From NCBI GenBank assembly GCA_051532055.1, contig JAOPTX010000034.1, positions 39,747-103,746 of the forward strand: a stretch of 64,000 bases of DNA, in the 5' to 3' direction. This document shows, one piece after another, positions 14,752-58,321 of this stretch. Position numbers and translations under genes: made by a program. Position 1 is the first letter of the stretch, and each line of letters opens with the position of its first letter. The notes beneath the pieces are model-generated. The model did not search any database, was not told the DNA's origin, and saw nothing but the letters and a program-made list of their open reading frames with translations. Source of the stretch: Fibrobacterales bacterium. GTDB lineage: Bacteria > Fibrobacterota > Fibrobacteria > Fibrobacterales > JAOPTW01.

Positions 14752-14788
14752 ATAACAACGGTCCACTCATTGAACGGGCCGTTGTTAT
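14752..14788. terminator. Bidirectional terminator
   Basis: ATAACAACGGTCC...GGGCCGTTGTTAT between convergent genes. Confidence 0.75.
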
Positions 14789-14807
14789 TGAATTAAAATT
14801 TTAAAAC

Positions 14808-16325: not shown

Positions 16326-16442
16326 ACTATCCCCCCCAGGATAAAAAATCATTATTGCCTTATCATATGTATCGAATACACTTTAGGCTGCCCGTATAAA
16401 ATAGCTTTAAAGTAGGGGGTATGCAAAGTTAATTAGGAATTT

Positions 16443-16458
16443 ACAGTTTACAAACTGT
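16443..16458. promoter_or_regulatory. Palindromic operator candidate, copy 1
   Basis: ACAGTTT-AC-AAACTGT with perfect arms; near-identical copy at 40338-40353. Confidence 0.5.
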
Positions 16459-16633
16459 TCACAAAAAAGGCCCCTACTGCAGTTTAAACGGCATATTTTA
16501 TGGTTTCAGCAACAAAAAGCATCTATAATTCATTCGCAAAAAACCAAAAGTCACTCCTCATTTTTCCAGAATGTATCCCATTTAATTATCTACATTTGGT
16601 ACACTTATACAACTAATAACACTGACACTCTTT

Positions 16634-18328: not shown

Positions 18329-18416
18329 GCAAGTCCTTTGAAGCTCTCTCTCTACCCCACCGTCGCAAGTCAATTTACTACATTTTTCAATACATTAATT
18401 ATCATTCTATAAACCT

Positions 18417-26314: not shown

Positions 26315-26347
26315 ATAATTCCTAGCACTCAATATAAGTGCAAATAT

Positions 26348-32560: not shown

Positions 32561-35315
32561 GACATTTTTTAAATTTCTTACCACTACCACACCAACAGGG
32601 ATCATTACGACCTACTTGTGGTCCGGTATTACGAACAGGTGCAGTCTTTTTCGGCTGCGGCCTCCGTTGTGGTGCTGGTCTTTGAAATGCCTCACCTGAT
32701 TCTTTGATATCTTCCCGGTTCTCAATACCCTGTGGCTTTTGCACCTCAGGTTCTGGAACGGGAACAGGTCCCTCTTCTACACGTACATTACAAAGACGTT
32801 CTGTTGATGACGTTGCAATTGACTCCATACAACTCTCGAACATTGTAAAGCCCTCTTTCTTATATACCATAAGCGGGTCTTTTTGTGCATAGCCATGAAA
32901 ACGAATTGCATCACGTAGATGATCCATTTGCTGTAGATGCTCTTTGTAGTGCTGATCAATTGTGAGAAGCAGTACACGGCGCTCTAAATTATGAAGATTC
33001 TCTTCATCAACCATATCAAGCAATTTAGTGTGCTTTTCTTTTGCAAGATCTATTACGTGTTCAACAACTCCTGCCCCACCTTTTGCCGCGACCATTTTAG
33101 AGTTGAGCTTTGCTTCTACACCATAGCTTCTACGAATATCTGCATCGATAGTGTCATAGTCGAGGTTCTCCGCAAATTCGCTATCGCCTAGATAATTACT
33201 GAGTTTAATATCAATTGCGTCTTCAAAGTTATTGAAAATTTCATCTTGGATATTTTCACCCTTAAGAATACGTCCACGAACACCATAGACAATTTTACGC
33301 TGTTCGTTCATGACATCGTCATATTCTAAAAGATGCTTACGCCCTTCAAAGTTTTGACCTTCAACCCGTTTTTGCGCATTGAGGATAGCTTTATTTACAA
33401 ATGGATGGGTAATTACTTCACCATCTTCTGCACCCAAACGATCCATAACTGATTTAATACGGTCAGAACCAAAAATCCTCATAAGGTTATCATCAAGGGA
33501 GAGATAATAACATGACTCACCAGGATCACCCTGACGTCCTCCTCGACCACGAAGCTGATTATCAATACGTCGACTTTCATGACGCTCTGTTGCAAGAACG
33601 TAGAGACCGCCCACCTCTTTTACCCCTGTGCCAAGTGCAATATCGGTACCACGACCCGCCATATTTGTTGCGATAGTTACTCGTCCCGGCTGCCCTGCAG
33701 AAAGAATTATTTCCGCTTCACGCCCATGATTTTTTGCGTTGAGTACATCATGTTGAACCCCTTCACGCTTCAGGCGTTTATGTAATTCTTCTGAACGTTC
33801 AACACTAATAGTACCCACAAGTATTGGTTGCCCTTTCTCGTGTCGTTCTTTGATGTCTGATACAATAGCAGCTAATTTCTCTTCATGAGTTTTAAAGATT
33901 TTATCATTATGATCTTCTCTGACACACGGTTTATGAGTCGGCACCGTTATCACGCCAAGACTATAAATCTGCATAAACTCTGTTGCTTCAGTCGCAGCAG
34001 TACCAGTCATACCAGAAAGTTTGTCATACATTCTAAAAAAGTTCTGAAAGGTTATTTGTGCAAGAGTTTGATTTTCACGCGCAATTTTAACTTGTTCTTT
34101 AGCTTCAATAGCCTGATGAAGACCTTCAGAGTACCGACGGCCTTCCATGAGACGACCAGTGTTTTCATCTACAATGACCACCTGACCATCTTTGACGAGA
34201 TAGTCAACATCATTTTGAAAGACAAACCACGCTTTAAGAGCCTGTGAAATGTGATGGACCCACTCAGCATTCATATTACCGTATAGGTTTTCTACACCAA
34301 GAATTTTCTCGCAAAGCTGTACTCCGCTATCAGTAAGAAGTACATTTCTCGACTTCTCATCAACAATAAAATCTTTATCTCTTGTAAGCTGAGGAATAAC
34401 TGCATTTACCCGCGTGTATTTCTCTGTTGACTGTTCCGCTGGTCCACTAATAATAAGCGGTGTACGAGCCTCGTCTACAAGAATAGAGTCAATTTCATCC
34501 ACGATGCAATAGTTAAAGCCTCGTTGTACAAGATCTTCTGGGTCAGTAGCCATATTATCACGAAGATAATCAAAGCCAAATTCATTGTTTGTTCCGTAGG
34601 TTACGTCTGCTCCATAGCCTTCACGACGCTGTTGTGAATTCAGTCCATGTACAATAAGACCTACGCTCAAGCCAAGAAAGTGGTACGCTTTACCCATAAG
34701 TTCAGCATCACGACTTGCAAGATAGTCATTCACCGTGACAACATGCACCCCTTTACCCGTAAGAGCATTCAGGTATACCGGACAAGTTGCCGCAAGTGTT
34801 TTACCTTCACCGGTCTGCATTTCTGCAATATTACCATCGTTAAGAGCAAGACCACCAATAAGCTGTACCTCAAAACTCTGCATCCTAAAAGGCTTCACAG
34901 ACTCGGGGTATATTTCACGAATTCTTTGATAAAAGGCTGCCGGAAGAAATATTTCGTGTTCTGGAGTGTGATTTTCGAGAGCTTCACGCGCTTCTTTTAC
35001 CACATTTTGAAGAGTGTCATCAAGAAGAGATAGATCAAACTCAAACTTTTCATGGATGACATTAAACATACCGAGTCGACGGTCTGCAGCTTCTCGGGCA
35101 ATAGCATATGCCTCGGCTTGTATTTCATCAAGTGCTGCGCCGCCACGAGCGCGCTCTTTAAGGGCCATACCTCGTGCAACCAATTCTGCATCATCTAAGG
35201 TATCAAGTTTTACGAATTGCGTATAGATATCTTCAAGAACAGGTTTGAGCTTTTTTATATAGCGATCACTCGGTGTTCCCAAGACTTTATAAATAATATT
35301 ATGGAGAAGTTTCAT
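32550..35315 (-). CDS. secA: Preprotein translocase ATPase SecA
   Basis: [56 protein letters not shown] motif [13 protein letters not shown]. Confidence 0.99.
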
Positions 35316-38300
35316 TTTTTATTTTCGTCTCAAAGTTTTTAAACCGCACTTCTATATCTTTTTGATAGAGATAGTGCATTTTTTGCGTTAACCTCTTCTG
35401 AATCAGAGGAAGCTGCATTTTGTCTTTGGAAGTAAAATAAAAAATATTTTGGGTAATGGCTTTGATATTGTCCGACGATCTCTTTATTTCATATTTTAAT
35501 TTTTTGTCAAAAAAGAGCAATTCTAAGTCAAATTCAGCATATACTTTACTTGCAACCCCAAAGTCACACTTAAAGTTTTTCAGAACGTACCGGTACCGTT
35601 TATTCAACTTCTTGCCCTGCTTCTCAACCACTTGTTTCGACTCTTTTTCACCTGCACCATTTTTCTTCTGCTCAACTTCTTCTGTTTTCATTTTTTTATC
35701 TACATGTGATTTATGAGTATTTTCATCGATCACCTCAAGTAACTCTCCCTGACCCGACTCATCATCAGAATCCGTAGTAATGACATTTTCACCATTTTCA
35801 GCCTTGTTTTTATCAATTTTAAGCAATTTCTTACTTGTTTCAACCCAAAAACTCACAGAATCAGCGATGGCACGTTTTACAAACTGCAATATACTATCAG
35901 CACGCAAGGCAACAGAGTCTTGAAATATCATCAAAGAATCAACAGCTGAATGCAATGTAACTCCCACCGATATCGCCTCATCTTCAATGTCTCGTTCGCC
36001 CTTTTTTACCCCATAATCACTCGAAATGTGCACTGCCTCATTTACTGAAGGCCCTCTATAAACCGCTCCTCCATCACTACTCAACAAAACAATTGACGCT
36101 GATGATCGAGTCTTCACCGACTGAAGTTGAACTCGCTTCACTTGATCCAATGAATCCTCCACTCTTTTCTCCTCCACCTTCTTCGCTATCGAATCTACAT
36201 ACGCCCTCTGTAATGCTTCTTTTTCAACGCGTAAAGAATCCGCTACTTGAGCAAGCTGAGCAGTACGCTCTCTCTCAATCCGGTCTTTTTCTGCTTGAGC
36301 CAAAACTCGAACTTTTTCACGGGCTCGCTCTTCCTCAGCTACTTTGAGAGCCGCTACCTGTTTTTGAGCCTCATGATCTTTGAGCGCTTTTATCCGAGCG
36401 CGTTCTTTTGCTTTTTCTTGAGTACGTTCTACTATTCGCTCTTTTTCTACACGCTCCTTCTCCGCCAAAGCTAATACCAATGCGAGTTCCTGCTCGCGAG
36501 CCCGCTCTTCCTCTGCTGCTTTAAGAACTGCCACTTGTTTACGGGCTTCACGCTCCTCGAATATTCTAACACTTTCAAGCTCCTTCGCCTCTTCTTCTAA
36601 ACGCTCCAACTCTTTTACTGAATCACTTCTCATTTGCGTAATCTGCTGCATATGCAGCTGTAGCGAATCCTTAAAGGCCTGAATAGAGTCTGCCACCACT
36701 TGTAACGAATCCAACCGTATTTGTTCACGTATGTCGATACGAACCCAACGGGCGACTGAATCAGCTATTGAACCTTTTACATAATTGAGTAAACTATCAG
36801 CCTCATAGGCACGTTTCAGTGCATTAAGCTCTTCTTGCGTAGGCTGTAGTGGTACTATCTCTAAAGAGGTCACCTGGTCATGAGCTTCATCCTCATCCAA
36901 ATCATATGTTTCGACTACCTCAATGAGATCCTCGTCACTCGCTTCAATAAGCTCTACAGGCATTTCGCTTACAACTTCATCTTGTATCTCAACCCCTTCA
37001 ACATCTACGACTCTTTGATTGCCAACACCTTTCTCTTTCTCTTCCACCACATCAAGTTCAAATAATTCTTCATTAGTACTTTGATCAATCCATTCAATTG
37101 CTCTGTTTTCATCAGACACATTTTCACTAGAACTGCCTTTTAGTAAACCATTTTCTGACTGAATATCATGGCCAACAACAAAGTACTCCACATTAACTTG
37201 CCTCTTATCACCTCCAACACTCTCCTCTGTCATCAATACAGCCTCGCTCGACAACATCATACTATCATTGTTTTGGCCGCTTCGCTGTCCTATTTCACCT
37301 CCAAATTCAAGCGGCTCAATAAAAGATTTTTTCCGTGGCTTCAAAGCCCCATCCTTCATCTGCTGAGTAATAAATCCCAACACACTATCAATTGCCGACA
37401 GTCGATCCTGAGCCTTTATCCTTATCTCACTTGATAGGCTAAAATATGATGCACTCACCCTATCCCCTATCGGTTTTATAGCGATTGCTTTAGAGCTACT
37501 CGATGTAACTATTTCATCTATGATCCCATCGATTACCCTTCCTTCATCGCTCATCTCAGCACCATCATCAAAATCACTATCAATACCCTCAAAATCATCG
37601 CTGTGCACGGACCTATCTTCCACAGGTTTTTCAATGTTACTCACAGCTGTCGACTTAACTGAAGCAACTATTGTTCTAACGCCATTTATAAAATTATCAT
37701 ATAGGCCTGAACGTCCTTCAGCTGTGTCAAGTGTACTCAGTTCTTTACTTTGAGAGGCTTGAATAACCTGTGCGGCAGAGTCCATTCGGGAAAACTCATT
37801 TATTAAGAACTGCTCTAGAGAATCATGTTGACGAACAAGTGAATCAAGTTGAACCTCATAGGCTATTGCTTGTCGTTGTGCCCGCTTCAAAGCAGCCACA
37901 GCAACCGAATCCTGATACAGGGAATCACTATAAAGAGAGTCAGTTATAAATGTTAACCGTTTTTGTCTCATCTCTTCCCGGCTCCGCACTACCAATTGAC
38001 GAAGACGAGATCGTTTTCTTTCCTGCAGAATTTCCCGAGCTTCAGCGCCCTGATTTATCACTTCTTGAGATGAAACCCCCAGTGCTGAGCTAGACAAAAT
38101 CACATGATCATAGAGTGCACGCACCAGAGTATCTCTCTTTTTTTCTCTGGTGATTTGTGACGAGTCAGACATTTCAGTTTTTCCAAAGGTAAATATTGAT
38201 CGCAACTCAATAACAAGGTCATCGACACTAAGAATGGCAGTATTCCACCAACGGGTCGTGTCAATTACAACAAATGAATCCTTACTTTCTTGAACATAAG

Positions 38301-39978
38301 AGGATATCTCTATCTCAACAATTCCTGTAAAATGATCAACAGAACTCAACACTATAAGAGTAGAAGAGCTGCTCAAAGCTTCACTCACACTACTCACATC
38401 AACTTTTTGCGTATCACTCAAAGAGCTAAGCGGTCGCACTAGTAGCAATTCAATAGGTATTGTTGCCACTTCAAACACACTATCTCTCTCATGCAAATCT
38501 TGTGCAACCTCTATACTCGATGATGCAGCTAAAGAGCGCTCTACACTACTCATTACAAATAACTCACCCGATGACTCTATTATTAGTGAATAAGAAGAAA
38601 TATAAACCGCCTCCCTCGATATTTCAGGTATTTCAGGTATTTCAATTTTCCACAAAAAATATCTCAGCCAATCAGCAAACTCAGAAATCCATTCACGCGC
38701 AAGCGGCTTATAGTAGAAGATCTTGGATCTACGAGAAAAACTTGGGAGCGAGACCGCTTCATTTGACTCTATAGAATCCTGAAAGTATGCCACCTCAACC
38801 GAACTCAACACCCCAATACTGCTACTCAATTCACTACTCATTACTGATGGTTCAGATGAAGTCAAACTACTCGATATGAACAATTGGTGACTTGATTCTA
38901 TTATCCTCGATGATGAAGATGATGAAGAAGATGATGATTGAATCCCTAACTGTTGGACCGTATCAATTGCAAAGCGCCATAGAGGTACGACTTCTATAAC
39001 TTCTGACTGCTGTACTCCTGAAGAGACTTCTTCATTTTTTTCAGGCCGCTCAAATACTGTTACAGATGCATTCTCTGCTGATGAAATTAACTGAACTGAC
39101 AATGAGGCTGCTTGATAGGAAGAATAACCACCTCTAGAAGAAAGACCTCTCACCTCACTACTACTTAACAGCCCTATGAGAGAATCACTCACAATTCGTT
39201 CTAGTAATTCTTCATGTAATGTTATTGCATACATTCGGGCATTATGAAGCACCAAAGAATCAATTTCATCTACACTCATTACTCGGTATTCATTTGACAG
39301 ACGTGGTACAGAGCCCTCTGATGAATTCGAGGATTTAGAGGAGACCTCTTCAATGTCCACTTCAAGAATCACTTCACCATTTAATACAGCTTTCTCTTTA
39401 ACCAATGCCTCGCTGTCAATCACCTCAAATTGGTCCCAGGCGGGAATTTCAAAGGGGAGCTCATTAGGTTCTTGACTTTGTGAGGTCATTAATAACACAC
39501 TACTGAGGGCGTCAGATGAAGTATCTAGTTGAGAATATTTTTGAGCTGCACTCGACAATACAACCAATAACTCACCTGCTGAAAGGGGTATTTCGACACT
39601 ACTCTCATTCTGAGCTTCTAGTGCCGTTGTATCACTAAAAAATTGCCCTATCGCAACAACCGGTGCTACAACAAATTCAGATATCCGAGAACCCAATGCC
39701 ATCTCTTCATACTCAATAAGATCTACTGGGTAATCGGTGGAGTCACCCACATAGATCAACTCCATAGTTTTTAGACTATCATTTGCAACCCACTTATAAT
39801 CAGTCGTACGGTGCTTTTCTACAAATTCATGATACCTATTATAATTTGACCAATAGATGCCCCATAATACATAGAGTAGCACGACAAAAAGAAAGATGCC
39901 AAATCCGACAACTCTCTCTTTCAAAAACGATATAAATGCGTTTTTGATCTCCACTCTATTCTCACTGTTAAGTTCCAA
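35299..39978 (-). CDS. 1559-aa single-pass membrane protein: Ser-rich/acidic low-complexity stalk, coiled coil, C-terminal FliL-like domain
   Basis: Uninterrupted 4.7-kb ORF (TTG start, uncertain), one N-terminal TM, E/R/A-rich helix; overlaps the secA start by 17 nt. Confidence 0.7.
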
Positions 39979-40337
39979 TCACTTATGTACGCACTTTGCG
40001 CACATCACCGTTTTATATATCGAATATTCCTTTGAGACTATTTAGATTTTAATGGCATTTTCGCCTTTTTCACTCAAATTAACCCATTTTAGAGTTGTTC
40101 AAATTACAGAGAACGCCACAATACTCTAATTATCACTCGAGAGACTACCTTAAGCTCCGCTCTTAGTTAGGTTATAGCGCTTACTGTTCATAAAAAATGC
40201 TATAATAGCTGGAAACACCCCAAAAATGTGACACGAATTGCTCTTTATATGTCAATTTTACATAAAGGTAACTTATCTTAGCAGTAGAGGCTTTAAAAGA
40301 GAACATACTGAATTTAGAGCGTCGTGAACACATTGAA

Positions 40338-40353
40338 ACAGTTTGTAAACAGC
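40338..40353. promoter_or_regulatory. Palindromic operator candidate, copy 2
   Basis: ACAGTTT-GT-AAACAGC, 14/16 identical to the reverse complement of 16443-16458. Confidence 0.5.
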
Positions 40354-40463
40354 AATTATGAATTAGCCTAAGGCTCACTTACTTAAAGAGAGCATATCAC
40401 CCAAATTTAGATAGATTAACCACACGTTCAAGAGAGTTAGACACACACCAAAAGGACACCTGT

Positions 40464-43400
40464 ATGATTTCACACATAGCTCGCACAACTATTATGTGTA
40501 TTGCAATCACCCTACTGTTATCACACACAATTTTTGCACGAGCAAATACTATTACCGTGCATCAAGACAGTTTAGGATTCAAAATTCAGGTTGATCAACG
40601 AGACCTCTTTATCAACGCAATACGTTGGAGCCATAAACCTGTAGGAGTCAATTATAATTATGACTTGTGGGCAAAATCAGACAACTACATTCGCAAAGTT
40701 TTAACCCATGACATGCGATTACTTCAAGAGTCAGGGGCAACTGCTATAGTCACTTCTCCTGGTATCCCATCCAAATGGGTTACCTATGTATATAAGAAAT
40801 TTAAAATCATGACCATTGTTCATTGGGAGATGGGCCGCTGGGGCATGACTTACAATAGCACCTGGAATGCAAATCCAGATTTCGAATCCCTACTGGTTCA
40901 AAACATCCTCACCAAAGAGATCACCACTATAATAGAGGAATACAAAGACACACAGGGGTTTTTGAGTTACGCCATAGGAAGCTCACACAACTGGGGGTGG
41001 GGCTGGAGTAACCCACGTATTGACAAACTTTCACAAGATGCTGCACAAGCAGCAAAAGCAGAAGTTATTTATGGACTCTTTGGCACTTTTACAAACCTCA
41101 TTAAACTAAATGACACCCATCACCCCGTCACTCTTGTTAATGGAGACGTTGCCTTTACCGACTATATTGAACGCCTCTGCCCCACAATTGATATCTATGG
41201 AGTCAATTCAACACGTGGTGCAATTTCAGGTGGTATTTTTGATCAGTTTAAAAATGAGATGCCAACTAAGCCCTTTCTTTACTTTACACTCGGCGGTAAT
41301 GGCGCATGGGATGACAAACTCAAAAGCGAAAACCCGCTCAAGCAAGCAAAAATTGTAAAAAGTCAACTTCATGAACTCTATACAGAAACCTATGGCAAAA
41401 AAACAGGCGTCGCTGTTGGTGCTGTAATGGGGTGGCAGGATGACTGGTCTATGGACCCTACCAACTGGCAACAGTGGGAATTAGACATTCATAATAACCA
41501 TATGATGGAGTGGCAGGGACTTGTTGCTATCGCTCCTTCGGATGATGAAGACCCACGTCCGCTCATTCCTCGCCCTGCTTTTTATGTAATGAAAGAAGCG
41601 TGGACCCGACTGAACCCTTATTCTGAAACAACAACAGAAACTTCCATTGATCAACTCTTTGACGGCATGCGTGAGGAGATGTATCTAGCACTCTATGATG
41701 TGAAACGTGTTGAGTATGAACTTAAAGAAAGTAACAAAGTACAGATGAATCATATGAACATTTCACTTGCCTCTGTTGGATACACCAATAATAAGCGTGC
41801 TGATTCCACCGGACACTTTACAAGCTCCATGCGATTTGATACAGAAGAGTCAGTTACCTTTGGATTTAAAGGAATTGTGGGGAGCCAATTAACTGCCAAT
41901 GCGCAACTTAAATATACTGGTAATGTATCTGAATTCAAGCTCGACCAATTTGATTATAACACTTTAAACAAACCCATGAAATTCGAAATGATGGACACTG
42001 TTGATTATGAGCCGGCAATGCTCAATAATGCAGAAATTCCTAGACAATCATTAAGACTGTACCGAGCGTCTTTTAATTATAGCGGGGACTATATTGATAT
42101 AGATGGCTACTATCGTCAAGGCCATACTCACTGGGGACATTTTGGAGATTTATTTAACCTCTACACAGAAGCTTATGACTACCCAACGTTTGACCAATGG
42201 GATATGACCGTACCCTATGGCCTTGAAATTACTGGTAAGAAATTCCTCAAAGGAATGCGTGTAGCAATTGGCCCTAAGCCCGTTGATGGTGGCAATCCAG
42301 CAATATACGCACTCTATCAAAAAACCATTGGTGACCTTAAAGTTTCTCCTATGTTAAAAATCGACCTCGGTCAGCTAGAAGAAACTGGGAGAGGAGCAAG
42401 CACCTTTAGAACATCCCAATTCACTGTCTCAGCAGAACAAAACACCTCAAATCTGACATTTAAAGCTGGTGCAATGATATCAGACCTTTCTCTCTCTTTA
42501 TTAAGTAAAAAGTATCAACTCAATGAAAAAATTGGCAAAAAATATGAAACCCAAAAGGGGTATACTGTAGGCTCCGGATTTGATTCTGAAACTATCCCTC
42601 CTGATTCAGTTACCCTTACCACTCTTGATGGGCTTGGTGGTAAAGTTGAAGTAATGGGGGACTATGGCCAAACTAAGTTTCTTGCCCTCGGACAATACAT
42701 GGGCCCTATCGCATACAGTGGCTGGGATCGAGAACACAAATTTGCAGATTGGACCATGAAAGACATCGGTGGAACGAATAAAATTCTGGGAACTTTTGGC
42801 TTTTCTCACGACATTGGTTCATTTAGAATATCTCCAAATTTTATGTATCAAAAACCTGTCGTTGACCCTCTTGAACGAGCAGAATATGAAAGTGTATACG
42901 ATGGATTCCCGGTGAACACTGATCCTACCACACCAAAGGAAGACCGATACACCCCATCACCAGTTTTGGTACAAAACCCCAAAACAATTGGTGGTGAACT
43001 TATAGTAACCTATGATCCTACCCCGAATACACAACTGTGGTTCTATGATTCAGACAACCAAGAAGATGCAGAACTCGCCGCACACCTCCACTTAGAATAC
43101 CGAAAACTTGGCCGCACTGATAGAATAACGTATGTAAACAAACGCGGTTATACAGTAAGCTTTGCAGAAGGTCAAAGTCCCTATGATAAATTTGGAACCA
43201 AGCTTCGCCTCATTTTTAACCCATCGCCCCTCTTTAAGATTATTGCGCGTGGTTATTATGACATCAAACGCGGACCTAATGGACAAATGAAAGCAACAAT
43301 TAATGCATTTGGAGGAAGTTTTGACCTCGCCTATTTTCAATGGCGTGTGAGTAGTGAAATCAAGATTGACGACTGGGGACCTTATGACTACATGGATGAA

Positions 43401-43631
43401 TGGAATATCGTCTATCCACTTCAAGCAAAGCTTGGCGTCAGTTATGGACTCTCTCGTATCGCACTCTTTGATTTCACGAAATCCTCATCTATTGGCGCAC
43501 GTATCTATTACCGAACTATACAATATGCTGATGATGCAACACAATTTTCAGATTCAGAAATACTTGATAGGATACATACCGTACTCAATTATGAACTTGA
43601 ACTCCGCACCTTCATAACCATAAATATTTAG
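40464..43631 (+). CDS. GH-A clan (GH2-TIM-barrel-like) domain, apparently non-catalytic, fused to a probable outer-membrane beta-barrel
   Basis: Signal peptide; PVGVNYNYDLW, HPVTLVNGD, DIYGVN, PRPAFYVMKEAW; C-terminal ~620 aa of amphipathic strands including GHTHWGHFGDLFNLYTEA and DDWGPYDY. Confidence 0.72.
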   Translation: MISHIARTTIMCIAITLLLSHTIFARANTITVHQDSLGFKIQVDQRDLFINAIRWSHKPVGVNYNYDLWAKSDNYIRKVLTHDMRLLQESGATAIVTSPGIPSKWVTYVYKKFKIMTIVHWEMGRWGMTYNSTWNANPDFESLLVQNILTKEITTIIEEYKDTQGFLSYAIGSSHNWGWGWSNPRIDKLSQDAAQAAKAEVIYGLFGTFTNLIKLNDTHHPVTLVNGDVAFTDYIERLCPTIDIYGVNSTRGAISGGIFDQFKNEMPTKPFLYFTLGGNGAWDDKLKSENPLKQAKIVKSQLHELYTETYGKKTGVAVGAVMGWQDDWSMDPTNWQQWELDIHNNHMMEWQGLVAIAPSDDEDPRPLIPRPAFYVMKEAWTRLNPYSETTTETSIDQLFDGMREEMYLALYDVKRVEYELKESNKVQMNHMNISLASVGYTNNKRADSTGHFTSSMRFDTEESVTFGFKGIVGSQLTANAQLKYTGNVSEFKLDQFDYNTLNKPMKFEMMDTVDYEPAMLNNAEIPRQSLRLYRASFNYSGDYIDIDGYYRQGHTHWGHFGDLFNLYTEAYDYPTFDQWDMTVPYGLEITGKKFLKGMRVAIGPKPVDGGNPAIYALYQKTIGDLKVSPMLKIDLGQLEETGRGASTFRTSQFTVSAEQNTSNLTFKAGAMISDLSLSLLSKKYQLNEKIGKKYETQKGYTVGSGFDSETIPPDSVTLTTLDGLGGKVEVMGDYGQTKFLALGQYMGPIAYSGWDREHKFADWTMKDIGGTNKILGTFGFSHDIGSFRISPNFMYQKPVVDPLERAEYESVYDGFPVNTDPTTPKEDRYTPSPVLVQNPKTIGGELIVTYDPTPNTQLWFYDSDNQEDAELAAHLHLEYRKLGRTDRITYVNKRGYTVSFAEGQSPYDKFGTKLRLIFNPSPLFKIIARGYYDIKRGPNGQMKATINAFGGSFDLAYFQWRVSSEIKIDDWGPYDYMDEWNIVYPLQAKLGVSYGLSRIALFDFTKSSSIGARIYYRTIQYADDATQFSDSEILDRIHTVLNYELELRTFITINI

Positions 43632-43638
43632 GAACATC

Positions 43639-44511
43639 ATGATAAAAAGAACCCTATTCTTAGCATCATGGAGCCTTATACTCATAACCTGTGCCCCCAA
43701 TAATGATTTAACACTTGGGGCAGTAAGTGACGATATTGCGGATATTGGTTCAGAATGGGAACTTATCTGGACTGATGATTTTGAAGACCCTTCACTCGAC
43801 ACCGACAAGTGGAAAATAAAAACGGGCAACGGTGAATGGGGCTGGGGGAACGGCGAACTCCAAAACTATCGAGAAGAGAATCTCTCTTTTCGTGATGGAG
43901 CTCTCGTGATTACTGCCAAAAAAGAACGTATCGGTATGTGCCATAATGGTTCCTGTAACTACACTTCAGCTAAAATTGAAACGTCTGACAAATTTTCTTT
44001 TAAATATGGCAAGATCGAAGCTCGTATGAAGTTACCACCAGGCCAAGCTATGTGGCCCGCCTTTTGGCTCATAGGTGATAATATCAGTTCATGGCGATGG
44101 CCCAAATGTGGTGAAATCGACATTATGGAATTTAAAGGACGCCTCCCTACAGTCACTCAAGGAACCATACACTGGGGAGATGACTCAGACCACAAAATAT
44201 CTATCGGGCATGATGCAAATGCAAATATCGATCTCACCGAAGACTTCCATGTGTATGGTCTCATATGGGAAGAATCTAAATTTACTTTTACTTTAGATGG
44301 CACAAGTTTTGGTACTGTAGCAATTAGTGGCAGCAACACTACTGATGTAATGAACCCCTTTGGCAGTGACTCACGAAATGACGATCAAGAATTTTTCATA
44401 ATATTAAACCTTGCTGTTGGAGGAATATTTGATGAGTGGATTGAACCAGAACAAAGCTTTAGCACCAGTGAATTTTTAATAGATTGGGTCCGAGTTTCCC
44501 AATTAAAATAG
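43639..44511 (+). CDS. GH16 laminarinase-type endo-beta-1,3-glucanase, probable lipoprotein
   Basis: GWGNGELQNY, YTSAKI, YGKIEAR, MWPAFW, catalytic EIDIME, ILNLAVGG; signal peptide ending LILIT-C. Confidence 0.92.
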   Translation: MIKRTLFLASWSLILITCAPNNDLTLGAVSDDIADIGSEWELIWTDDFEDPSLDTDKWKIKTGNGEWGWGNGELQNYREENLSFRDGALVITAKKERIGMCHNGSCNYTSAKIETSDKFSFKYGKIEARMKLPPGQAMWPAFWLIGDNISSWRWPKCGEIDIMEFKGRLPTVTQGTIHWGDDSDHKISIGHDANANIDLTEDFHVYGLIWEESKFTFTLDGTSFGTVAISGSNTTDVMNPFGSDSRNDDQEFFIILNLAVGGIFDEWIEPEQSFSTSEFLIDWVRVSQLK

Positions 44512-44641
44512 CCCAAATAACCTTACATATAAACGAAATTAGAACAATAAACAGAAAACAAATGAGCAATTAACTAAACAAAGTATACCCACCAATATGA
44601 TGAGGGTATATTTAACACAAACATACATAATGGGGATCGAC

Positions 44642-45289
44642 ATGAAGAAGCTAATAACGATATCGATTGTAGCGCTATTTACAATAATCGGATGTGCTGC
44701 AGAAACAATAACACCAACTGAGAATGGCAGTTCTGATGACGCAAGTCAAAGTTCTGATGAAGGTTCTGAGATTGCTGATGATGCATTTATAATTTTTAAT
44801 GAAACAATGTCTGAGGGATATGACCTTGGTGCATTCCCCGCTAAAGGCCCCACGATTGATGGGGAAAATGAAGTCCTTTCTATGATCTTTGAAAAAGGAC
44901 AATCGGTTTGGATATTTCCAGATGAAGAGTTTGTAGATATCTCAGAACATTCATCAATGAAATTCACATACACCTCTGATGAAGTATTTTCTGTTCGTGT
45001 TATGTGGGGTGAATTACCTGATGGCCACAATTCTGAAGGGGCTCCTTACTGGGAAGGTAACTATGATGATAAAGAGGGCGGATTTATTATTGCAGACTCA
45101 ATCTCTGCTTCAAGTTCACCAAAAGATTTTAGCATAGATTTTGACGACATGCTTGACCCCGCACATCAGTTTCATGTTGAAGAAAGTGACTTTGAAGGCG
45201 ACAAATCTAATGACCTTTCAAAAGTGCATCAGATTGTTTTTCTCTCAGAAAACAGCACTCTTCTTATCAATAAACTGAGATTCGAATAG
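44642..45289 (+). CDS. Acidic lipoprotein with putative carbohydrate-binding beta-sandwich
   Basis: MKKL..IIG-C lipobox, Ser/Asp linker, VDISEHSSMKF..FSIDFDDM..DLSKVHQIVF..INKLRFE. Confidence 0.7.
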   Translation: MKKLITISIVALFTIIGCAAETITPTENGSSDDASQSSDEGSEIADDAFIIFNETMSEGYDLGAFPAKGPTIDGENEVLSMIFEKGQSVWIFPDEEFVDISEHSSMKFTYTSDEVFSVRVMWGELPDGHNSEGAPYWEGNYDDKEGGFIIADSISASSSPKDFSIDFDDMLDPAHQFHVEESDFEGDKSNDLSKVHQIVFLSENSTLLINKLRFE

Positions 45290-45341
45290 CACTCAGTAAC
45301 TATTTATAGGCCTGTAGTGATACAGACCTTTATTATATACC

Positions 45342-45376
45342 CAAAGAAGGAGTGTCACAATGGCACTCCTTCTTTG
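45342..45376. terminator. Bidirectional terminator
   Basis: CAAAGAAGGAGTGTCA-caa-TGGCACTCCTTCTTTG between convergent operons. Confidence 0.85.
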
Positions 45377-45396
45377 TTCAATACTATAATGAATCG

Positions 45397-47256
45397 TTAT
45401 AGTACATCTGTTCCCCGTTCAGTATAATGGGTATGGAGTAATGAGTGGGCCTTATGCCCCAAAATACCATCAGTGAGAAACTCCGCATATATTCTATGTA
45501 CAGCAGGATTCTCATGTGACTTACGTATTGCATACGATTCATCTTCTGCATAGATCGCTTTCATACGCTCCTTCCGAACAGCTTCAGTCGTTGGAATTGG
45601 CTGACCACCTCCTCCAATACACCCTCCAGGGCAAGCCATGAACTCAATAAAGTGACACTCACTAAACTTACCACCCTCTTTAATATCCTCCAACACCTTT
45701 TTAGCATTGGCAGTACCATGAGCAATAGCCACTTTAAGAGTCGCCCCTTTGAGCCAGTCCCAGTTATCAAGATACTGATTTAGAATATCAGGTACTGGTC
45801 CTACTGTTGCAATAGGGAGCTCCACATACTTGATCCCTTCAAAACCTCTCAGTGGAACAATGTTTGTCTTTTCAAAAAGGTCTTCAATTTTTTCACCCGT
45901 AACCAGTTCGTACACCGTTCTGATTGCGGCTTCCATCACACCACCTGTCGTACCAAATATCACACCAGACCCTGTCGCATCACCAAATGGATCATCAAAA
46001 TCAGATTTTTCCTCATCAGGAAGGTGGATACCATGCTCTTTAATCATCTTGCCCATTTCGCGGGTAGTAAGTACATAGTCAACATCTTTGTGACCACTAT
46101 CGTTCATCTCAGGCCTATCACACTCATATTTCTTTGCAGAACAAGGCATAAGTGAAACTGATACAATCTCCTCTGGCTTAAGATTATTACATTCAGCAAA
46201 ATAGGTCTTCATCACGGTACCAAACATCTGCTGTGGTGATTTTGCTGATGAGAGATTGGGGATCATTTCAGGATAGAAGTGCTCAAGATACTTTACCCAC
46301 CCTGGTGAGCACGAGGTAAACTGTGGTAACGCCACATCATCTTTTTTTGCAACAAGTGCATTAAACAACCTCAATATCAGCTCTGTACCCTCTTCAAAAA
46401 TAGTGAGATCAGCTGAAAAGTTTGTATCAAATACTTTGTCAAACCCCATTTTCCGAATAGCAGTATTCATTTGATAGGTCATTGAAGTCCCAGGCGTTAG
46501 CCCAAAAATCTCACCTATACCTGCCCTTGGTGCAGGAGCGGTCTGAATCACCACAGTCTTACTTGGGTCGGCAATCTCATCCCACACATTTCGTTTAGCA
46601 TTCTTAACTGTCAGAGCCGCAGTCGGACACCGATTGACACATTGTCCACAATTAATACAGACGACATCATCCATAGGCATATCATTGAAAGTCCCTATAT
46701 ATGACTCTGACCCTTTATCAAATGCTTCATATGCCCCAACTTCTTGAAGGTCGACACAGGTACGAATACAACGTCTACACAGCACACACTTGTCCATATC
46801 CCGGACAATTGAGTAGGCCGTATCATCAACGACAAAATCTCGCTCTACTTTTTTACCAAAAGTGAACTCTTTGATATCATGTATATCTGCAAGCTCTCTT
46901 AATTCACAATTACCATTACGCTCACAGGCATAGCATTCCCCAACATGCTTAGATAGAAGGAGTTCAACAACATGTTTCCTAGCTTCTCGTACTTTTTGCG
47001 TCTGAGTCCGAATGGTCATCTCTTGATTAATTGGAAAAGCACATGATGCCTGCAGTGTACGCATACCTTCTATTTCAACGACACAGACCCGACATACACC
47101 ACCAAGCTCAAGGTCATCATGCTGACACAGTGTTGGGATCTTAATACCTACTTCTCGAGCAGCCATTAAGATAGTTGTCCCTGTAGGCACGCGAACTTCT
47201 TTACCATCTATGGTCACTTTTATCAGACCACCAATTTGGTTTTGTGGAGCACTCAT
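45397..47256 (-). CDS. hydA: [FeFe]-hydrogenase group A catalytic subunit (second enzyme)
   Basis: N-terminal 2Fe-2S, His-ligated 4Fe-4S and 2x4Fe-4S; H-cluster motifs FTSCSPGW, MPCSAKKYE, EFMACPGGCIGGGGQP. Confidence 0.96.
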   Translation of the reverse strand: MSAPQNQIGGLIKVTIDGKEVRVPTGTTILMAAREVGIKIPTLCQHDDLELGGVCRVCVVEIEGMRTLQASCAFPINQEMTIRTQTQKVREARKHVVELLLSKHVGECYACERNGNCELRELADIHDIKEFTFGKKVERDFVVDDTAYSIVRDMDKCVLCRRCIRTCVDLQEVGAYEAFDKGSESYIGTFNDMPMDDVVCINCGQCVNRCPTAALTVKNAKRNVWDEIADPSKTVVIQTAPAPRAGIGEIFGLTPGTSMTYQMNTAIRKMGFDKVFDTNFSADLTIFEEGTELILRLFNALVAKKDDVALPQFTSCSPGWVKYLEHFYPEMIPNLSSAKSPQQMFGTVMKTYFAECNNLKPEEIVSVSLMPCSAKKYECDRPEMNDSGHKDVDYVLTTREMGKMIKEHGIHLPDEEKSDFDDPFGDATGSGVIFGTTGGVMEAAIRTVYELVTGEKIEDLFEKTNIVPLRGFEGIKYVELPIATVGPVPDILNQYLDNWDWLKGATLKVAIAHGTANAKKVLEDIKEGGKFSECHFIEFMACPGGCIGGGGQPIPTTEAVRKERMKAIYAEDESYAIRKSHENPAVHRIYAEFLTDGILGHKAHSLLHTHYTERGTDVL

Positions 47257-48938
47257 TATTTACCCTCCTCATATCTCAATAGTTCACCTCTAAAGTGCTC
47301 TGCAATGTTCGCGAAAGCACTACTACTAGTCTGACCGAGCCCACATTTTGATGCAACAGTCATTGAATTACTGAGCTTCAATAATTCTTCTAAATACTCC
47401 TCTTCACAGTCTCCATCAACCATCTGATCGAGGCCTTCAAGTATTACCTCATTACCTTCTCGACAGGGAGTACACTGTCCACATGACTCCTCAGCAAAAA
47501 ATTCCATAAAATTAATTGCTACTTGTCTCATATCTGTTTTCTGTCCAAAAACCATTATCGAGCCTCCCGTAGGTATATCTTCAAATGCAATGGATCGGTC
47601 AAAATCCTTCGCAGGGATACACAACCCTGAAGCACCGCCCACCTGTACCGCTTTAGCATCACTACCACCGCACTCTGCCAACATCTCTTTAACCGTAATA
47701 CCATATTGATATTCATAAATTCCCGGTTTATCACAGTGCCCTGATATACTCAATATCTTTGTGCCTTTCGATTGCTCAGTACCTAGAGCGTTAAACCATT
47801 CTCCACCTTTAACAGTGATAAATGCCACACTTATAAAAGTCTCTACATTATTTACGGATGTGGGTTTACCCATAAACCCGGTATCAACAGGAAAGGGCGG
47901 ACGATTACGAGGCTCACCACGCTTTCCTTCCATAGACTCAATAAGTGCAGTCTCTTCACCACAGATGTACGCCCCTGCACCCATTCTAATTTGTAGTTCA
48001 AAATTAAATCCATCTTTTCCACAAATATCTTTACCTAAAAGATTTGCGGCTACCCGTTCAGCAATTACTTCTTCAAGCTGATCCTTCATGTAGTAATACT
48101 CTGCTCGTAGATAAATTAAACCATATCGAGCCCCAATTGCATAAGCACCAATAGTCATTCCTTCCAGTAATTCATGGGCTCGCTCAACAAGAAGCAACCG
48201 ATCTTTAAATGTCCCCGGCTCACCCTCATCTGCATTGCAAACAATATATTTTTCATTACTTTGTGCAGCGCCAGCCAGTTGCCACTTCATCGCAGTTGGG
48301 AACCCAGCCCCACCTCGCCCTCGAATACCAGAAGCCCTTATCTCTGCAATAAGGTCTGGGCGACTCATAGAGAGAGCCTTCTGTATTGCCTCCCCCTTAT
48401 CAATACTCGCCTCTAATATGGCATCTTTTTTATGAATATTAAAGGGAACATCTACAGCACCCACACCTGACGCCTCAATAATTTCCGGAACCATTGTTGT
48501 AGTCACTTTTGCATAGAGTTTTTCATTGACGAGCACTCCAGGACCTTGATCACAAAGTCCCATACAGTTTGCATATTCAAGCGTCCATTCTCCATTCTCA
48601 CTTGTTTCACCTATAGCTATCCCAAGAGCTTCTTCAAAGGCCTCAACTATTTCTGCTTTCCCTGAAAGGTCACAGGATATAGTTTGGCATATGCTCACCA
48701 CATTTTTTCCCGCCGCCTCTTGCGTTCTGAAAAATGAATAAAATGATGCGACTCCCTCTACCTCTGCTTTATGTATATCTAAAGCCGTTGCCACCTCTTG
48801 CAAAACCAAAGGAGGTAACCACCCATATTCATTCTGCATATCATGGAGTATTGGCATGAGTGCGGACCGCGCCACTCCATGCTGTCCAGAGAGTTTCTTA
48901 ACTTTTAGCTGGACTTTCATACGATCTAAATCTGGCAT
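47256..48938 (-). CDS. Fused NuoE-NuoF-like (HydC-HydB) diaphorase subunit without C-terminal ferredoxin domain
   Basis: CQTISC..CMGLC 2Fe-2S; GRGGAGFPT, NADEGEPGTFKDR, GAGAYICGEET, GGASG, SCGQCTPCREG..CGLG, then ends. Confidence 0.93.
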   Translation of the reverse strand: MPDLDRMKVQLKVKKLSGQHGVARSALMPILHDMQNEYGWLPPLVLQEVATALDIHKAEVEGVASFYSFFRTQEAAGKNVVSICQTISCDLSGKAEIVEAFEEALGIAIGETSENGEWTLEYANCMGLCDQGPGVLVNEKLYAKVTTTMVPEIIEASGVGAVDVPFNIHKKDAILEASIDKGEAIQKALSMSRPDLIAEIRASGIRGRGGAGFPTAMKWQLAGAAQSNEKYIVCNADEGEPGTFKDRLLLVERAHELLEGMTIGAYAIGARYGLIYLRAEYYYMKDQLEEVIAERVAANLLGKDICGKDGFNFELQIRMGAGAYICGEETALIESMEGKRGEPRNRPPFPVDTGFMGKPTSVNNVETFISVAFITVKGGEWFNALGTEQSKGTKILSISGHCDKPGIYEYQYGITVKEMLAECGGSDAKAVQVGGASGLCIPAKDFDRSIAFEDIPTGGSIMVFGQKTDMRQVAINFMEFFAEESCGQCTPCREGNEVILEGLDQMVDGDCEEEYLEELLKLSNSMTVASKCGLGQTSSSAFANIAEHFRGELLRYEEGK

Positions 48939-54918: not shown

Positions 54919-54934
54919 GATTTCCTCACTAATC

Positions 54935-58066: not shown

Positions 58067-58321
58067 TCGTTATCAAATTAACGTTCTAGTAGTAACACTC
58101 ATACAGCCTTCATTTTCACTGCTGTTACCTTGATAACGTAACTTCACATAATATACCATTTTCATGTGATAAAAGAAACGTTTAGATTACAATTTGTTCT
58201 CAAAGTTGTAATTTTTTTCACGCTCTATTGTTACATTGATAACGATGATATGGCTCTAACGATCTAAAAATGGGTATTATTTTAACAAAAACCGATTATT
58301 TTGTTGTGAATTATCTAACGA
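58067..58321 (-). promoter_or_regulatory. rex-hyd promoter with multiple Rex-like boxes
   Basis: 18-mers at 58067, 58122, 58206, 58228 and 58304 resembling TTGT(G/T)A-N6-T(C/A)ACAA; extended -10 TGGTATATT on the minus strand at 58150-58158. Confidence 0.65.

Follow-up and report, generated by a model that had tools for sequence, protein, structure and literature searches.

A glucanase-like domain without catalytic residues fused to a predicted outer-membrane β-barrel in a probable β-1,3-glucan operon of a Fibrobacterales bacterium

In a window of 64,000 nucleotides from a marine Fibrobacterales bacterium (contig JAOPTX010000034.1), the whole stretch of DNA analysed here, a gene on the forward strand (40464..43631, +) encodes a 1055-residue protein, P0001, in which a glucanase-like domain devoid of catalytic residues precedes a predicted outer-membrane β-barrel. 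We propose, with a probability of about one half, that P0001 is the outer-membrane part of a three-gene laminarin uptake operon, that its barrel forms a plug-less channel, and that its dead domain binds glucan uncut on the periplasmic side and feeds an ABC importer and a GH149 enzyme.

Results

The P0001 gene is present as a single copy in its own genome. Its frame is intact, as stated by a sequence-only reading of the same DNA, which also pointed out the Trp-rich motifs WGWGW and WQQWE found in the protein. The full-length AF2 model reached a mean pLDDT of 84.1 and a pTM of 0.71. Residues 1–27 (40464..40544, +) form a putative Sec signal peptide recognised by eye from its h-region and its A-x-A motif, A-R-A, in front of N28; it is of type I and not a lipoprotein signal, and P0001 is thus presumably secreted. 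A25 and N28 are invariant among P0001 and its three closest relatives, P0002, P0003 and P0004, which together constitute the query clade. The mature protein consists of a GH158-like clan GH-A domain (residues 28–390; 40545..41633, +), two linker helices defined by DSSP of the AF2 models (residues 392–401 and 404–422; 41637..41729, +) and a barrel of about 24 strands, which extends from residue 426 to about residue 1055 (41739..43628, +).

A comparison of the N-terminal domain with known structures using VIA-align revealed GH158 structure 9p26 as the best match (Z 28.1, rmsd 2.8 Å over 288 residues), besides GH157 (Z 27.1) and GH2 glucuronidases (Z about 26). Z-scores of 25–28 to GH158, GH157, GH2 and GH5 structures show that the (β/α)8 fold of clan GH-A is present, in agreement with the glycoside hydrolase barrel recognised from the sequence alone, and Foldseek likewise matched the domain to 9p26 (E 2.6e-12). 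Residues 30–390 were modelled mostly with pLDDT values above 90, a level also reached in the cleft regions around residues 160–180 and 270–280. At the sequence level, the family profile matched GH158 chains in the PDB (9oro, E 6.1e-11, positions 138–277 only; BuGH158 6pal, E 1.7e-9); the query sequence alone reached E 0.04 over 94 residues. Identity to the GH158 enzymes is only 12–17%. Pfam Glyco_hydro_2_C matched 24 of 52 family members but not the query. P0001 shares its fold with the GH158 enzymes BuGH158 (PDB 6PAL) and GH158(Pro) (PDB 9ORO/9P26), including the N-terminal β-hairpin, which makes up the mature N-terminus of P0001 and aligns to residues 4–28 of 6pal. The C-terminal Ig-like domain of GH158, which in BuGH158 packs on helices α7 and α8 (PMC7157763), is absent; in P0001 the TIM barrel is followed instead by the two helices (392–422) and the 630-residue membrane barrel.

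Alignment to homologues demonstrated that both catalytic glutamates are lost. The Asn-Glu acid/base columns after β4 are occupied by S173-S174 (40980..40985, +), which lie in the motif AIGSSHNWG starting at residue 170 and are followed by H175, and the β7 nucleophile column by T275 (41286..41288, +) in the motif KPFLYFTLGG. The β2 arginine column contains V96 (40749..40751, +) in the motif AIVTS. These replacements had been correctly located by the sequence-only reading, and its statement that homologues of about 1050 residues near laminarinase genes keep GNE and TEFG proved right. It overlooked the loss of the β6 tyrosine, now T250 (41211..41213, +), and of the otherwise family-invariant D279, W329 and E348. 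Each of the columns V96, S173, S174, T250 and T275 carries the canonical residue (RNEYE) in 68 of the 69 full-length unbroken genome homologues; the single exception, from the congeneric locus L001 (71% identical), has the query pattern VSSTT. Within the query clade, Val and Ser-Ser are accompanied by T/T/N/N in the β6 column and T/T/S/S in the nucleophile column, while the β6 tyrosine is kept in all 38 active family members of the cleft-residue alignment. Representative proteins of at least 900 residues (n = 41) comprised 32 with RNEYE, one with NEYE lacking the N-terminus, one garbled sequence and seven without the residues, namely P0001–P0004, P0046, P0085 and P0072; replacements in the lineages outside the query clade read REATS, RDGGS and CNDYG. 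HMMER aligned N-E and T-E-F-G of the family with N-E and T-E-[FW]-G of the GH158 chains 9oro and 6pal. The Asn-Glu pair of the family aligns to N136-E137 of BuGH158, an enzyme inactivated by each of the alanine substitutions of N136, E137 and E220 (PMC7157763), and the residues corresponding to these three in P0001 are S, S and T.

Three acids are invariant in the query clade and specific to it and might conceivably rebuild a catalytic pair: E141, E308 and E122, the last of which follows β3 directly and adjoins the former acid/base position. The family alignment showed no carboxylate at β4 or β7 of the domains of this clade. In the cleft, the family-invariant Y126, Y140, Y177 and L179 are changed to W, F, W and W/F/M, and H175, F274, W338, Y130 and F262 appear as new clade-invariant aromatic residues. 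A loop of 19 residues after β8 is deleted; together with the loss of W329 and D279, this deletion could harm the binding cleft too.

The family comprises 243 genome loci and 462 representative hits from at least seven phyla, among them Bacteroidota, Calditrichota, Myxococcota, Gemmatimonadota and Fibrobacterota. The GH domain of P0001 is 90.9, 66.4 and 56.1% identical to those of P0002, P0003 and P0004, respectively, compared with 61.9, 52.3 and 38.5% for the barrel; at 91% against 62% identity to the nearest relative, conservation of the dead domain exceeds that of the barrel. Its dN/dS value calculated by the Nei-Gojobori method was 0.048 at a dS of 1.04. Because of this strong purifying selection, the N-terminal domain is regarded as a pseudo-enzyme and not as part of a decaying gene, and the earlier suggestion of a pseudo-enzyme is upheld by a retained fold, missing catalytic residues and an intact gene. 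A domain whose catalytic centre has been erased and which is nevertheless more tightly conserved than the barrel must have a role beyond hydrolysis. At least two lineages besides the query clade lost the catalytic residues independently. On the tree, loss occurred at least three times and always on long stems; the label 'dead' requires three changes, and the starred branches force three. With at least three losses, the barrel-linked role of the domain does not need hydrolysis.

The C-terminal part was modelled without the GH domain with a pLDDT of 78.4 and a pTM of 0.77. Comparison with 48,161 chains by VIA-align identified FimD (Z 15.1), PapC (14.2), MtrB (13.6) and AlgE (12.9), and furthermore TonB-dependent transporters and porins (Z 10–12 each), and Foldseek matched the P0001 barrel to BtuB3 (E 1.2e-9). 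All of the 50 best VIA-align matches listed are membrane β-barrels, mostly from bacterial outer membranes and seven from mitochondria (Tom40, VDAC, SAM); no autotransporter occurs among these 50. In the AF2 model, 24 strands were counted, with turns of two to three residues after strands 2, 4, 8, 10, 12, 14, 18 and 20, and most strands alternate hydrophobic and polar residues in a dyad repeat. A signal peptide, a closed antiparallel barrel with an even number of strands, short turns alternating with long loops and dyad strands are in line with an outer-membrane β-barrel. The prediction from sequence of about 620 residues of amphipathic strands forming a membrane barrel therefore holds, with about 630 residues of alternating strands following the GH domain. 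The last residue of P0001 is Ile and not the usual Phe, in which family members from Pseudomonadota end. The Plug, TonB_dep_Rec and CarboxypepD_reg domains were matched neither in the query nor in 52 family members, and P0001 contains no TonB box. Without a recognised plug, a 24-stranded pore would be expected to leak if it were sealed neither by loops nor by the GH domain.

Starting 8 nt beyond the end of the barrel gene, the next gene (43639..44511, +) encodes P0158, a laminarinase-type GH16 lipoprotein (Pfam Glyco_hydro_16, E 2e-21), in which an intact E-I-D-I-M-E motif and the lipobox L-I-T-C were identified by eye. It is followed by the gene of P0159 (44597..45289, +), a lipoprotein with the lipobox I-I-G-C and an acidic Ser-rich linker; its true start is probably M16 at 44642. 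P0159, which has no Pfam or NCBIfam match, shares 54% identity with its syntenic counterpart at L001, and ESM Atlas gave weak leads to CBM30 and galactose-binding-like clusters, so that it is possibly CBM-like. RNA-library contigs (run X2, metatranscriptomic, from the sample that also yielded the probable source assembly) cover the 5′ leader just upstream of the P0001 start codon without differences (40308..40458, +) as well as 43844–44077 in P0158 and 44644–45075 in P0159. This coverage of parts of all three operon genes and the leader at a depth of 2–8 is a weak hint of transcription and could be explained by DNA carry-over.

The setting near laminarinase genes stated earlier for homologues was borne out: of 80 loci of relatives, 75 contain GH16 at a distance of up to 6 kb, 76 a lipoprotein partner, 46 GH149 and 43 a BguR-like regulator. 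Their neighbours are catabolic, comprising GH16, GH149 phosphorylase, GH3, GH17, GH30, MFS or ABC importers and BguR-like regulators, and their lipoprotein partners include some with CBM or PKD domains. SusC, SusD, Plug and TonB-receptor domains were found in none of 97 neighbour proteins (68 from 14 loci plus 29 of the 49 remaining large ORFs), and no glycosyltransferase or synthase lies beside the family gene in any locus scanned. The operon and the family neighbourhoods point to β-1,3-glucan. The genome of the query encodes one GH149 (1734 bits, cut-off 1150), which adjoins an Opp-type ABC importer with an SBP_bac_5 component. As GH149 and importer are located on a contig other than that of the P0001 operon, the link is circumstantial.

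Discussion

Barrel fusion, GH16 lipoprotein and small lipoprotein would together serve the uptake of β-1,3-glucan (laminarin), and the common design of the family would be a GH158-like endo-glucanase domain, two helices and a barrel of about 24 strands without plug or TonB box. No SusC/SusD pair was found among the neighbours scanned in the laminarin loci, so that β-1,3-gluco-oligosaccharides most likely enter through the barrel as a TonB-independent channel. GH16 would cut the glucan at the cell surface and the resulting oligosaccharides would cross the outer membrane by way of the barrel. At the periplasmic mouth, its most likely position, the dead domain would capture them and make diffusion one-directional, and they would then pass uncut to the Opp-type ABC importer and, in the cytoplasm, to the GH149 β-1,3-glucan phosphorylase. 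That the domain most likely binds glucan without cutting it is suggested by the remaining fold and purifying selection and by aromatic cleft residues, both retained and added.

The same pseudo-enzyme and channel could be arranged differently, with the dead domain on the cell surface, the linker helix threaded through the pore in the manner of type V autotransporters, and a function as glucan-capturing lid or lectin, as pictured in the sequence-only reading. Helix 404–422, with 19 residues and a length of about 28 Å, ends three residues before strand 1; this length fits a pore-spanning helix as in autotransporters and counts against a periplasmic placement, and so does the N-terminal CBM4_9 of the family member P0034, a module more typical of enzymes at the cell surface. 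In the model lacking the GH domain, barrel loop 1 lost its helices, was modelled differently and with lower confidence, a possible sign that domain and loop touch each other on the outer face. The closest relative with a solved structure, BuGH158, is predicted to be a surface enzyme (PMC7157763). However, the tight turns follow even-numbered strands, and by the usual topology rule for outer-membrane proteins the start of strand 1 and thus the domain junction would be periplasmic. The GH domain, being N-terminal to strand 1, could be a lid only with the linker helix running through the pore. The pLDDT of the linker helices drops from 77–96 in the full-length model to 50–61 without the GH domain; such a drop is unexpected for a pore-filling helix, and the helices apparently pack on the GH domain and not in the barrel. 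N-terminal soluble domains of barrel proteins, such as BamA, LptD, PgaA and BcsC, are usually periplasmic, and we know of no autotransporter with as many as 24 strands; the structures that match the barrel best are those of ushers, MtrB and TonB-dependent transporters. Surface lipoproteins for capture outside the cell (GH16 and the partners with CBM or PKD domains) are already encoded in the operon and in the loci of the relatives. The models thus favour a periplasmic attachment point; an outside position of the domain is doubtful though by no means far-fetched, and we consider the complete surface arrangement unlikely.

We regard it as improbable that the domain is still active as a glycosidase, transglycosylase or lyase-like enzyme through relocated residues (E122, E141, E308, H120/H175 and the conserved D326/D327). 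Three clade-specific invariant acids, one of them next to the former acid/base site, very strong selection and a well-modelled cleft would fit such an activity. It is opposed by the joint loss of five canonical clan GH-A active-site residues including the nucleophile, since single alanine substitutions at three of these positions already abolish BuGH158 activity (PMC7157763), and by the different replacements in at least two other lineages, which fit release from catalysis better than a new mechanism. Equally improbable in our view is a domain that no longer touches glucan and serves as structural plug, gate, assembly module or docking platform for GH16, the lipoprotein or a periplasmic binding protein. 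The losses of W329, D279, E348 and the β8 loop, the need to close a wide plug-less barrel and a whole-model pTM that seems higher than expected for two freely moving domains speak for this role, but the cleft aromatics were conservatively kept or added and not randomised, and a long stem branch followed by tight conservation within the clade is the usual picture of a new ligand-binding role. The resemblance of an N-terminal soluble domain plus C-terminal barrel to exopolysaccharide porins, and AlgE-, PelB-, BcsC- and PgaA-type barrels among the fold matches (Z 9–13), would agree with export of glucan past a periplasmic hydrolase-like domain; with catabolic neighbours and no adjoining glycosyltransferase or synthase in the loci scanned, this is very improbable.

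Among known systems, SusC/SusD of Bacteroidota likewise combine a large outer-membrane barrel with a glycan-recognising module, and the P0001 family occupies their slot in laminarin loci (regulator, outer-membrane protein of about 1050 residues, lipoprotein of 450–650 residues, GH16). The designation as a one-chain analogue of SusCD is nevertheless doubtful: P0001 has no plug, TonB box or TonB_dep_Rec signature, about 24 instead of 22 strands, and an N-terminally fused TIM barrel behind a type I signal peptide, unrelated to the TPR-like α-helical lipoprotein lid SusD; transport would be passive. The sugar porins LamB, ChiP, OprB and CymA are TonB-independent oligosaccharide channels, as proposed for P0001, whose barrel matches LamB, ChiP and OprB in fold (Z 10–12); however, these porins have 14–18 strands, no fused soluble domain and no detected sequence relationship to P0001. 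The periplasmic capture proposed here resembles the maltose-binding protein, which drives flux through LamB. FimD/PapC and MtrB, the top structural matches, have similar strand numbers (24–26), but the P0001 barrel has neither the plug nor the N- or C-terminal domains of ushers and is only 6–10% identical, so that the likeness probably concerns barrel size only. Type Va autotransporters have a 12-stranded barrel, a pore-spanning helix and an N-terminal passenger; P0001 has an enzyme-like N-terminal domain, a 19-residue helix directly before strand 1 that might be a counterpart of theirs, and about 24 strands. Glycosidase-fold lectins, such as the GH16-derived β-glucan recognition proteins of insects and the GH18-derived chitinase-like lectins, retain fold and aromatic cleft and bind polysaccharide with their catalytic carboxylates replaced; they are soluble immune proteins of eukaryotes, whereas the P0001 domain is bacterial, belongs to clan GH-A, is fused to a barrel and is encoded in a catabolic operon.

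Laminarin ranks among the ocean's largest carbon fluxes, and present accounts of its uptake by bacteria rely, to our knowledge, almost exclusively on SusCD systems and TonB-dependent transporters. The P0001 family, in which a glucanase-like domain is joined to a plug-less barrel, occupies the centre of laminarin loci across several phyla and stands in the place of SusC in marine Flavobacteriia; the query clade represents a natural experiment on the role of the domain without catalysis. One can tentatively speculate, with rather low confidence, that the whole family is an unrecognised device for β-1,3-glucan import without TonB or SusCD, a GH158-like domain on a 24-stranded channel in at least seven phyla, most members of which cut the chain on entry. 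Dead versions of at least three origins (the Fibrobacterales genus, a lineage including a Treponema MAG and a marine Tara lineage) would replace 'cut and import' by 'bind and import' and deliver long oligosaccharides intact to GH149, saving ATP for fermenting anaerobes. If true, this would define a new class of glycan importer, provide a clean bacterial case of a glycosidase turned lectin and put right an annotation error that recurs in PUL catalogues.

GH158 enzymes share with P0001 the laminarin-locus setting beside GH16. In laminarin PULs of Muricauda/Flagellimonas, a 'GH2' was described after a LuxR-type regulator and before GH16 and GH149 (PMC13188888); the text covered from that study refers to it only as a GH2-type glycosidase and mentions no membrane barrel. 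Locus L057 originates from a genome listed there and L004 shows the gene order described, and this 'GH2 β-glycosidase' is probably an active member of the P0001 family. Unlike P0001, the Muricauda/Flagellimonas members keep all catalytic residues.

Domain structure of P0001

The unbroken open reading frame at 40464-43631 (+) encodes a protein of 1055 residues, P0001, with an N-terminus that reads by eye as a type I signal peptide and no significant match in Pfam or NCBIfam. P0001 is a secreted two-domain protein in which a GH158-like fold without its catalytic residues is joined to a barrel of outer-membrane type with about 24 strands and no signature of a plug or of TonB interaction; it is under purifying selection, and the gene neighbourhood of its family is one of beta-1,3-glucan.

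The sole PDB sequence match of P0001 was a GH158 endo-beta-1,3-glucanase (E 0.04), whereas a profile of 52 family members matched the GH158 chains 9oro (E 6.1e-11) and 6pal (BuGH158, E 1.7e-9) and then GH2 beta-galactosidases. Pfam recognised Glyco_hydro_2_C in only 24 of these 52 members. In a full-length AlphaFold2 model (mean pLDDT 84.1, pTM 0.71), residues 25-418 superposed on the GH158(Pro) structure 9p26 with a Z-score of 28.1 and an RMSD of 2.8 Å over 288 residues; the same region gave Z 27.1 with GH157 and about Z 26 with GH2 glucuronidases, and Foldseek also matched 9p26 (E 2.6e-12). The glycoside hydrolase barrel recognised in the sequence-only reading is thus borne out on the predicted structure as a GH158-like domain, which has the fold of clan GH-A but not the clan's catalytic residues.

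The C-terminal part, modelled alone, reached a pLDDT of 78.4 and a pTM of 0.77. When this model was compared with 48,161 PDB representatives, every match listed was a membrane beta-barrel, and most by far came from bacterial outer membranes, among them FimD (Z 15.1), PapC (Z 14.2), MtrB (Z 13.6), AlgE (Z 12.9) and TonB-dependent transporters and porins (Z 10-12); Foldseek matched BtuB3 (E 1.2e-9). We counted 24 long strands, most of them with alternating hydrophobic and polar residues. As all fold matches listed are membrane barrels and the strands mostly alternate, the predicted barrel, already suspected from the sequence, is considered real, with no close relative among solved structures. 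Pfam found nothing in the C-terminal 630 residues of the 52 family members. Assignment to DUF6029, to which ESM Atlas gave 0.94 beside unnamed clusters, was rejected since Pfam did not confirm it at E values up to 1. At least one homologue stands alone (P0155, 588 residues, with its own signal peptide).

The barrel resembles ushers in size only and belongs to no known porin family. It has neither the plug nor the TonB box of SusC and other TonB-dependent transporters and is therefore not one of them, which weakens the idea of a one-chain analogue of SusCD. No description of a glycosidase-barrel fusion was found in the openly accessible articles searched by full text. P0001 itself varies two known themes, the pseudo-enzyme and, putatively, the glycan channel; more of the novelty lies in the architecture at the level of the family.

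Loss of the catalytic centre

In the alignment P0001 has V96 where the beta2 Arg is expected, S173-S174 in place of Asn-Glu on beta4, T250 in place of Tyr on beta6 and T275 in place of Glu on beta7. These five columns read R-N-E-Y-E in 68 of the 69 full-length, unbroken genome homologues taken from the best 80 of 243 loci, and among these 69 the V-S-S-T-T of P0001 is shared only with its 71%-identical congener at locus L001. The loss of both catalytic glutamates and of the beta2 Arg, as noticed from the sequence, is therefore real, and it goes further than the sequence-only reading had stated. In HMMER alignments, N-E and E of the family fall on N-E and T-E-F/W-G of GH158 chains; these residues are N136, E137 and E220 in BuGH158, and the alanine mutant of each is reported to be inactive (PMC7157763). 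Compared with 38 active members, P0001 and its clade relatives P0002-P0004 also replaced the family-invariant residues G52, D279, F322, W329 and E348, put W in place of Y126 and Y177, F in place of Y140 and W, F or M in place of L179, and deleted a 19-residue loop after beta8. Residues H175, F274, W338, Y130 and F262 became invariant in this clade, which also acquired three acidic residues: E122, immediately following beta3, E141 and E308. We liken the dead domain to the non-catalytic lectins of glycosidase fold, as a putative binder.

Of the 41 representative proteins with 900 residues or more, 32 carry R-N-E-Y-E, one without an N-terminus carries N-E-Y-E, one is garbled and seven have lost residues, namely P0001-P0004 (VSSTT or VSSNS), P0046 (REATS), P0085 (RDGGS) and P0072 (CNDYG). 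In a quick FastTree phylogeny of 52 rows, with SH-like support only, the dead sequences fell into three separate, long-branched groups: P0001-P0004 (support 100, stem 0.98), P0046 with P0085 (support 100, stem 1.16) and P0072 (terminal branch 1.95). A Treponema MAG is the source of P0085, and P0072 includes members from Tara Oceans. In these two further lineages the catalytic residues were lost independently.

The GH-like domain is the most conserved portion of the protein within the query clade, its identity between P0001 and P0002, P0003 and P0004 being 90.9%, 66.4% and 56.1%, compared to 61.9%, 52.3% and 38.5% for the barrel. The Nei-Gojobori dN/dS ratio against L001, a check proposed together with the pseudo-enzyme claim, was 0.048 at dS 1.04 for the GH domain, indicating purifying selection; the value of 0.087 for the barrel is unreliable since dS is saturated. 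A decaying pseudogene is ruled out by the unbroken frame and the dN/dS of 0.05. That the residues were lost several times and the domain was conserved thereafter suggests that the protein does not need hydrolysis for its main job.

The operon and the neighbourhoods of the family

A GH16 gene, whose product has a lipobox and an E-I-D-I-M-E motif that is intact, lies 8 bases 3' of the P0001 gene and is followed by the gene of P0159, a 230-residue lipoprotein of no known family in Pfam or NCBIfam. ESM Atlas gave weak CBM-like leads for P0159; hhalign probabilities of 22% and 3% showed no relationship to partner lipoproteins of other phyla. With the genes on either side on the opposite strand, the three make up a compact unit. 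In a promoter and terminator scan of 39900-45500, sites were no commoner than in shuffled sequences. In a metatranscriptomic library made from the sample of the probable source assembly, contigs match 40308-40669, 42578-43102, 43844-44077 and 44644-45075 with zero differences at a depth of 2-8, a weak hint at expression of the operon in which stretches without contigs do not count as evidence of absence.

Searching 1.84 billion representatives yielded 462 relatives at E ≤ 0.001, of which 84 also passed E ≤ 1e-30; many are full-length, with 1000-1100 residues. In addition, 243 loci were found in species-representative genomes; a metagenome scan with P0001 as query returned no loci. The best 80 of the 243 loci belong to Flavobacteriaceae, Saprospiraceae, Chitinophagales, Bacteroidales, Calditrichota, Myxococcota, Gemmatimonadota, Eisenbacteria and one Fibrobacteraceae MAG. 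Within at most 6 kb per side of the family gene (several loci being shorter), blastp at E ≤ 1e-6 detected GH16 in 75 of these 80 loci, GH149 in 46, a BguR-like Y_Y_Y regulator in 43 and a lipoprotein partner in 76, comprising 74 of a conserved type with 450-650 residues, two of a Myxococcota type and one of the P0159 type, with two types present at one locus. The neighbours of about 1150 residues are GH149 beta-1,3-glucan phosphorylases (NCBIfam, 1290-1674 bits; cut-off 1150). SusC, SusD, Plug and TonB-receptor domains were absent from 68 neighbour proteins of 14 loci and from 29 of another 49 large neighbour ORFs that had stayed unexplained, the other 20 being mostly near-duplicates or scanned before. 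The usual order in Bacteroidota of regulator, family gene, lipoprotein and GH16 mirrors the order regulator, SusC, SusD and GH16 of SusC loci.

The 450-650-residue lipoprotein lies directly 3' of the barrel gene in 74 of the 80 loci, the slot of SusD in a classical PUL (examples from L002-L080 are L008:9135-11093, L004:9132-10586 and L051:9245-11110). It has an internal repeat of about 160 residues, a C-E-R-D-type lipobox region and no Pfam or NCBIfam match, and is probably a surface glucan-binding partner. Large multidomain proteins with PKD and CBM4_9 domains, with or without Bact_surface_Ig-like, follow GH16 in many Flavobacteriaceae loci (L009, L010, L022, L030, L037, L039, L042, L047 and others, around 11450-15100); they are probably surface glycan-binding proteins of these loci, in which no SusCD pair was found. 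N-terminal extensions of 190-480 residues occur in P0034, P0010, L025:5071-9078 and L074:4447-9057; that of P0034 is a CBM4_9 and the other three have no Pfam match.

Section 5 of a study of laminarin PULs in Muricauda, published in 2026 (PMC13188888), lists a 'GH2 beta-glycosidase' at the position of the family gene and mentions no barrel for it. Locus L057 comes from one of the genomes of that study, and we infer that its 'GH2' is a family member.

Source genome

The P0001 gene is single-copy in its 5.2-Mb source genome; compensation by a paralogue was discarded, the other matches being two weak clan GH-A ones (E about 1e-6). Of 151 genomes sampled across the order and 296 across the phylum, the same two in each case, the source genome and its congener, carried the gene. 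It was probably acquired laterally. The genome has 17 GH16 matches, three of which lie within about 6 kb on contig C10 (143.6-150.2 kb); a weak clan GH-A match interrupted by one TAA is found about 5 kb past them (C10:155078). Its sole GH149 (1734 bits) divergently adjoins a five-gene SBP_bac_5 Opp-type ABC importer on contig C25 (L093:9229-12693 and 13009-18629). The opposite flank of this GH149 is occupied by a capsule-export cluster (Wzi, Wzz, Poly_export).

Proposed function and sidedness

We propose that the GH16 lipoprotein would make laminari-oligosaccharides, for which the barrel would be a passive channel, and that the dead domain would bind the glucan chain. Placed in the periplasm, this domain may serve as a 'receiver' which captures the incoming chain and hands it on, without cleavage, to GH149 by way of the ABC importer, a reading to which we assign a probability of about 0.5.

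The side on which the domain lies was judged from the model. Tight turns of 2-3 residues follow strands 2, 4, 8, 10, 12, 14, 18 and 20 of the predicted barrel. In known outer-membrane proteins the short-turn side is periplasmic, which would place the start of strand 1, and with it the attachment of the domain, on the periplasmic side. The linker helices (residues 392-401 and 404-422) were modelled confidently only when the GH domain was included, which suggests that they pack on this domain rather than in the pore. Both features favour the periplasmic receiver and argue against the lid over the pore, outside the cell, which the sequence-only reading had pictured. Such a lid would agree with a 19-residue helix directly before strand 1 that could span the pore, with the N-terminal CBM4_9 of one member and with a barrel loop 1 that is modelled differently without the GH domain; given the position of strand 1 and the suggested packing of the helices, we consider it less likely. 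If the periplasmic receiver kept chains long for phosphorolysis, it might save ATP in a fermenter, a speculation prompted by the presence of GH149 and the parallel with the anaerobic Treponema; [FeFe]-hydrogenase clusters are present in the window.

Other features of the window

The 1559-residue protein encoded upstream (35299-39978, -), a very large ORF without Pfam or NCBIfam match, shares 49% identity with a syntenic gene of the congener at L001 and is absent at L046 and L043; it was accordingly not counted in the conserved neighbourhood of the family. Another very large ORF (58311-63218, -; 1635 residues) has no Pfam match. A 1095-residue protein (23045-26332, -) combines a sulfatase domain with two carbohydrate-binding domains of the NPCBM/NEW2 type, which points to sulfated algal glycans as substrates. 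A gene for a 674-residue protein (51151-53175, -) is flanked by two HydABC-like hydrogenase clusters (45397-48938 and 53194-56920). This protein joins HisKA/HATPase histidine-kinase domains to Fe-S motifs and a [FeFe]-hydrogenase large-subunit-like domain and has the look of a kinase that senses hydrogen or redox state; a response-regulator/kinase hybrid is encoded at 49542-50669.
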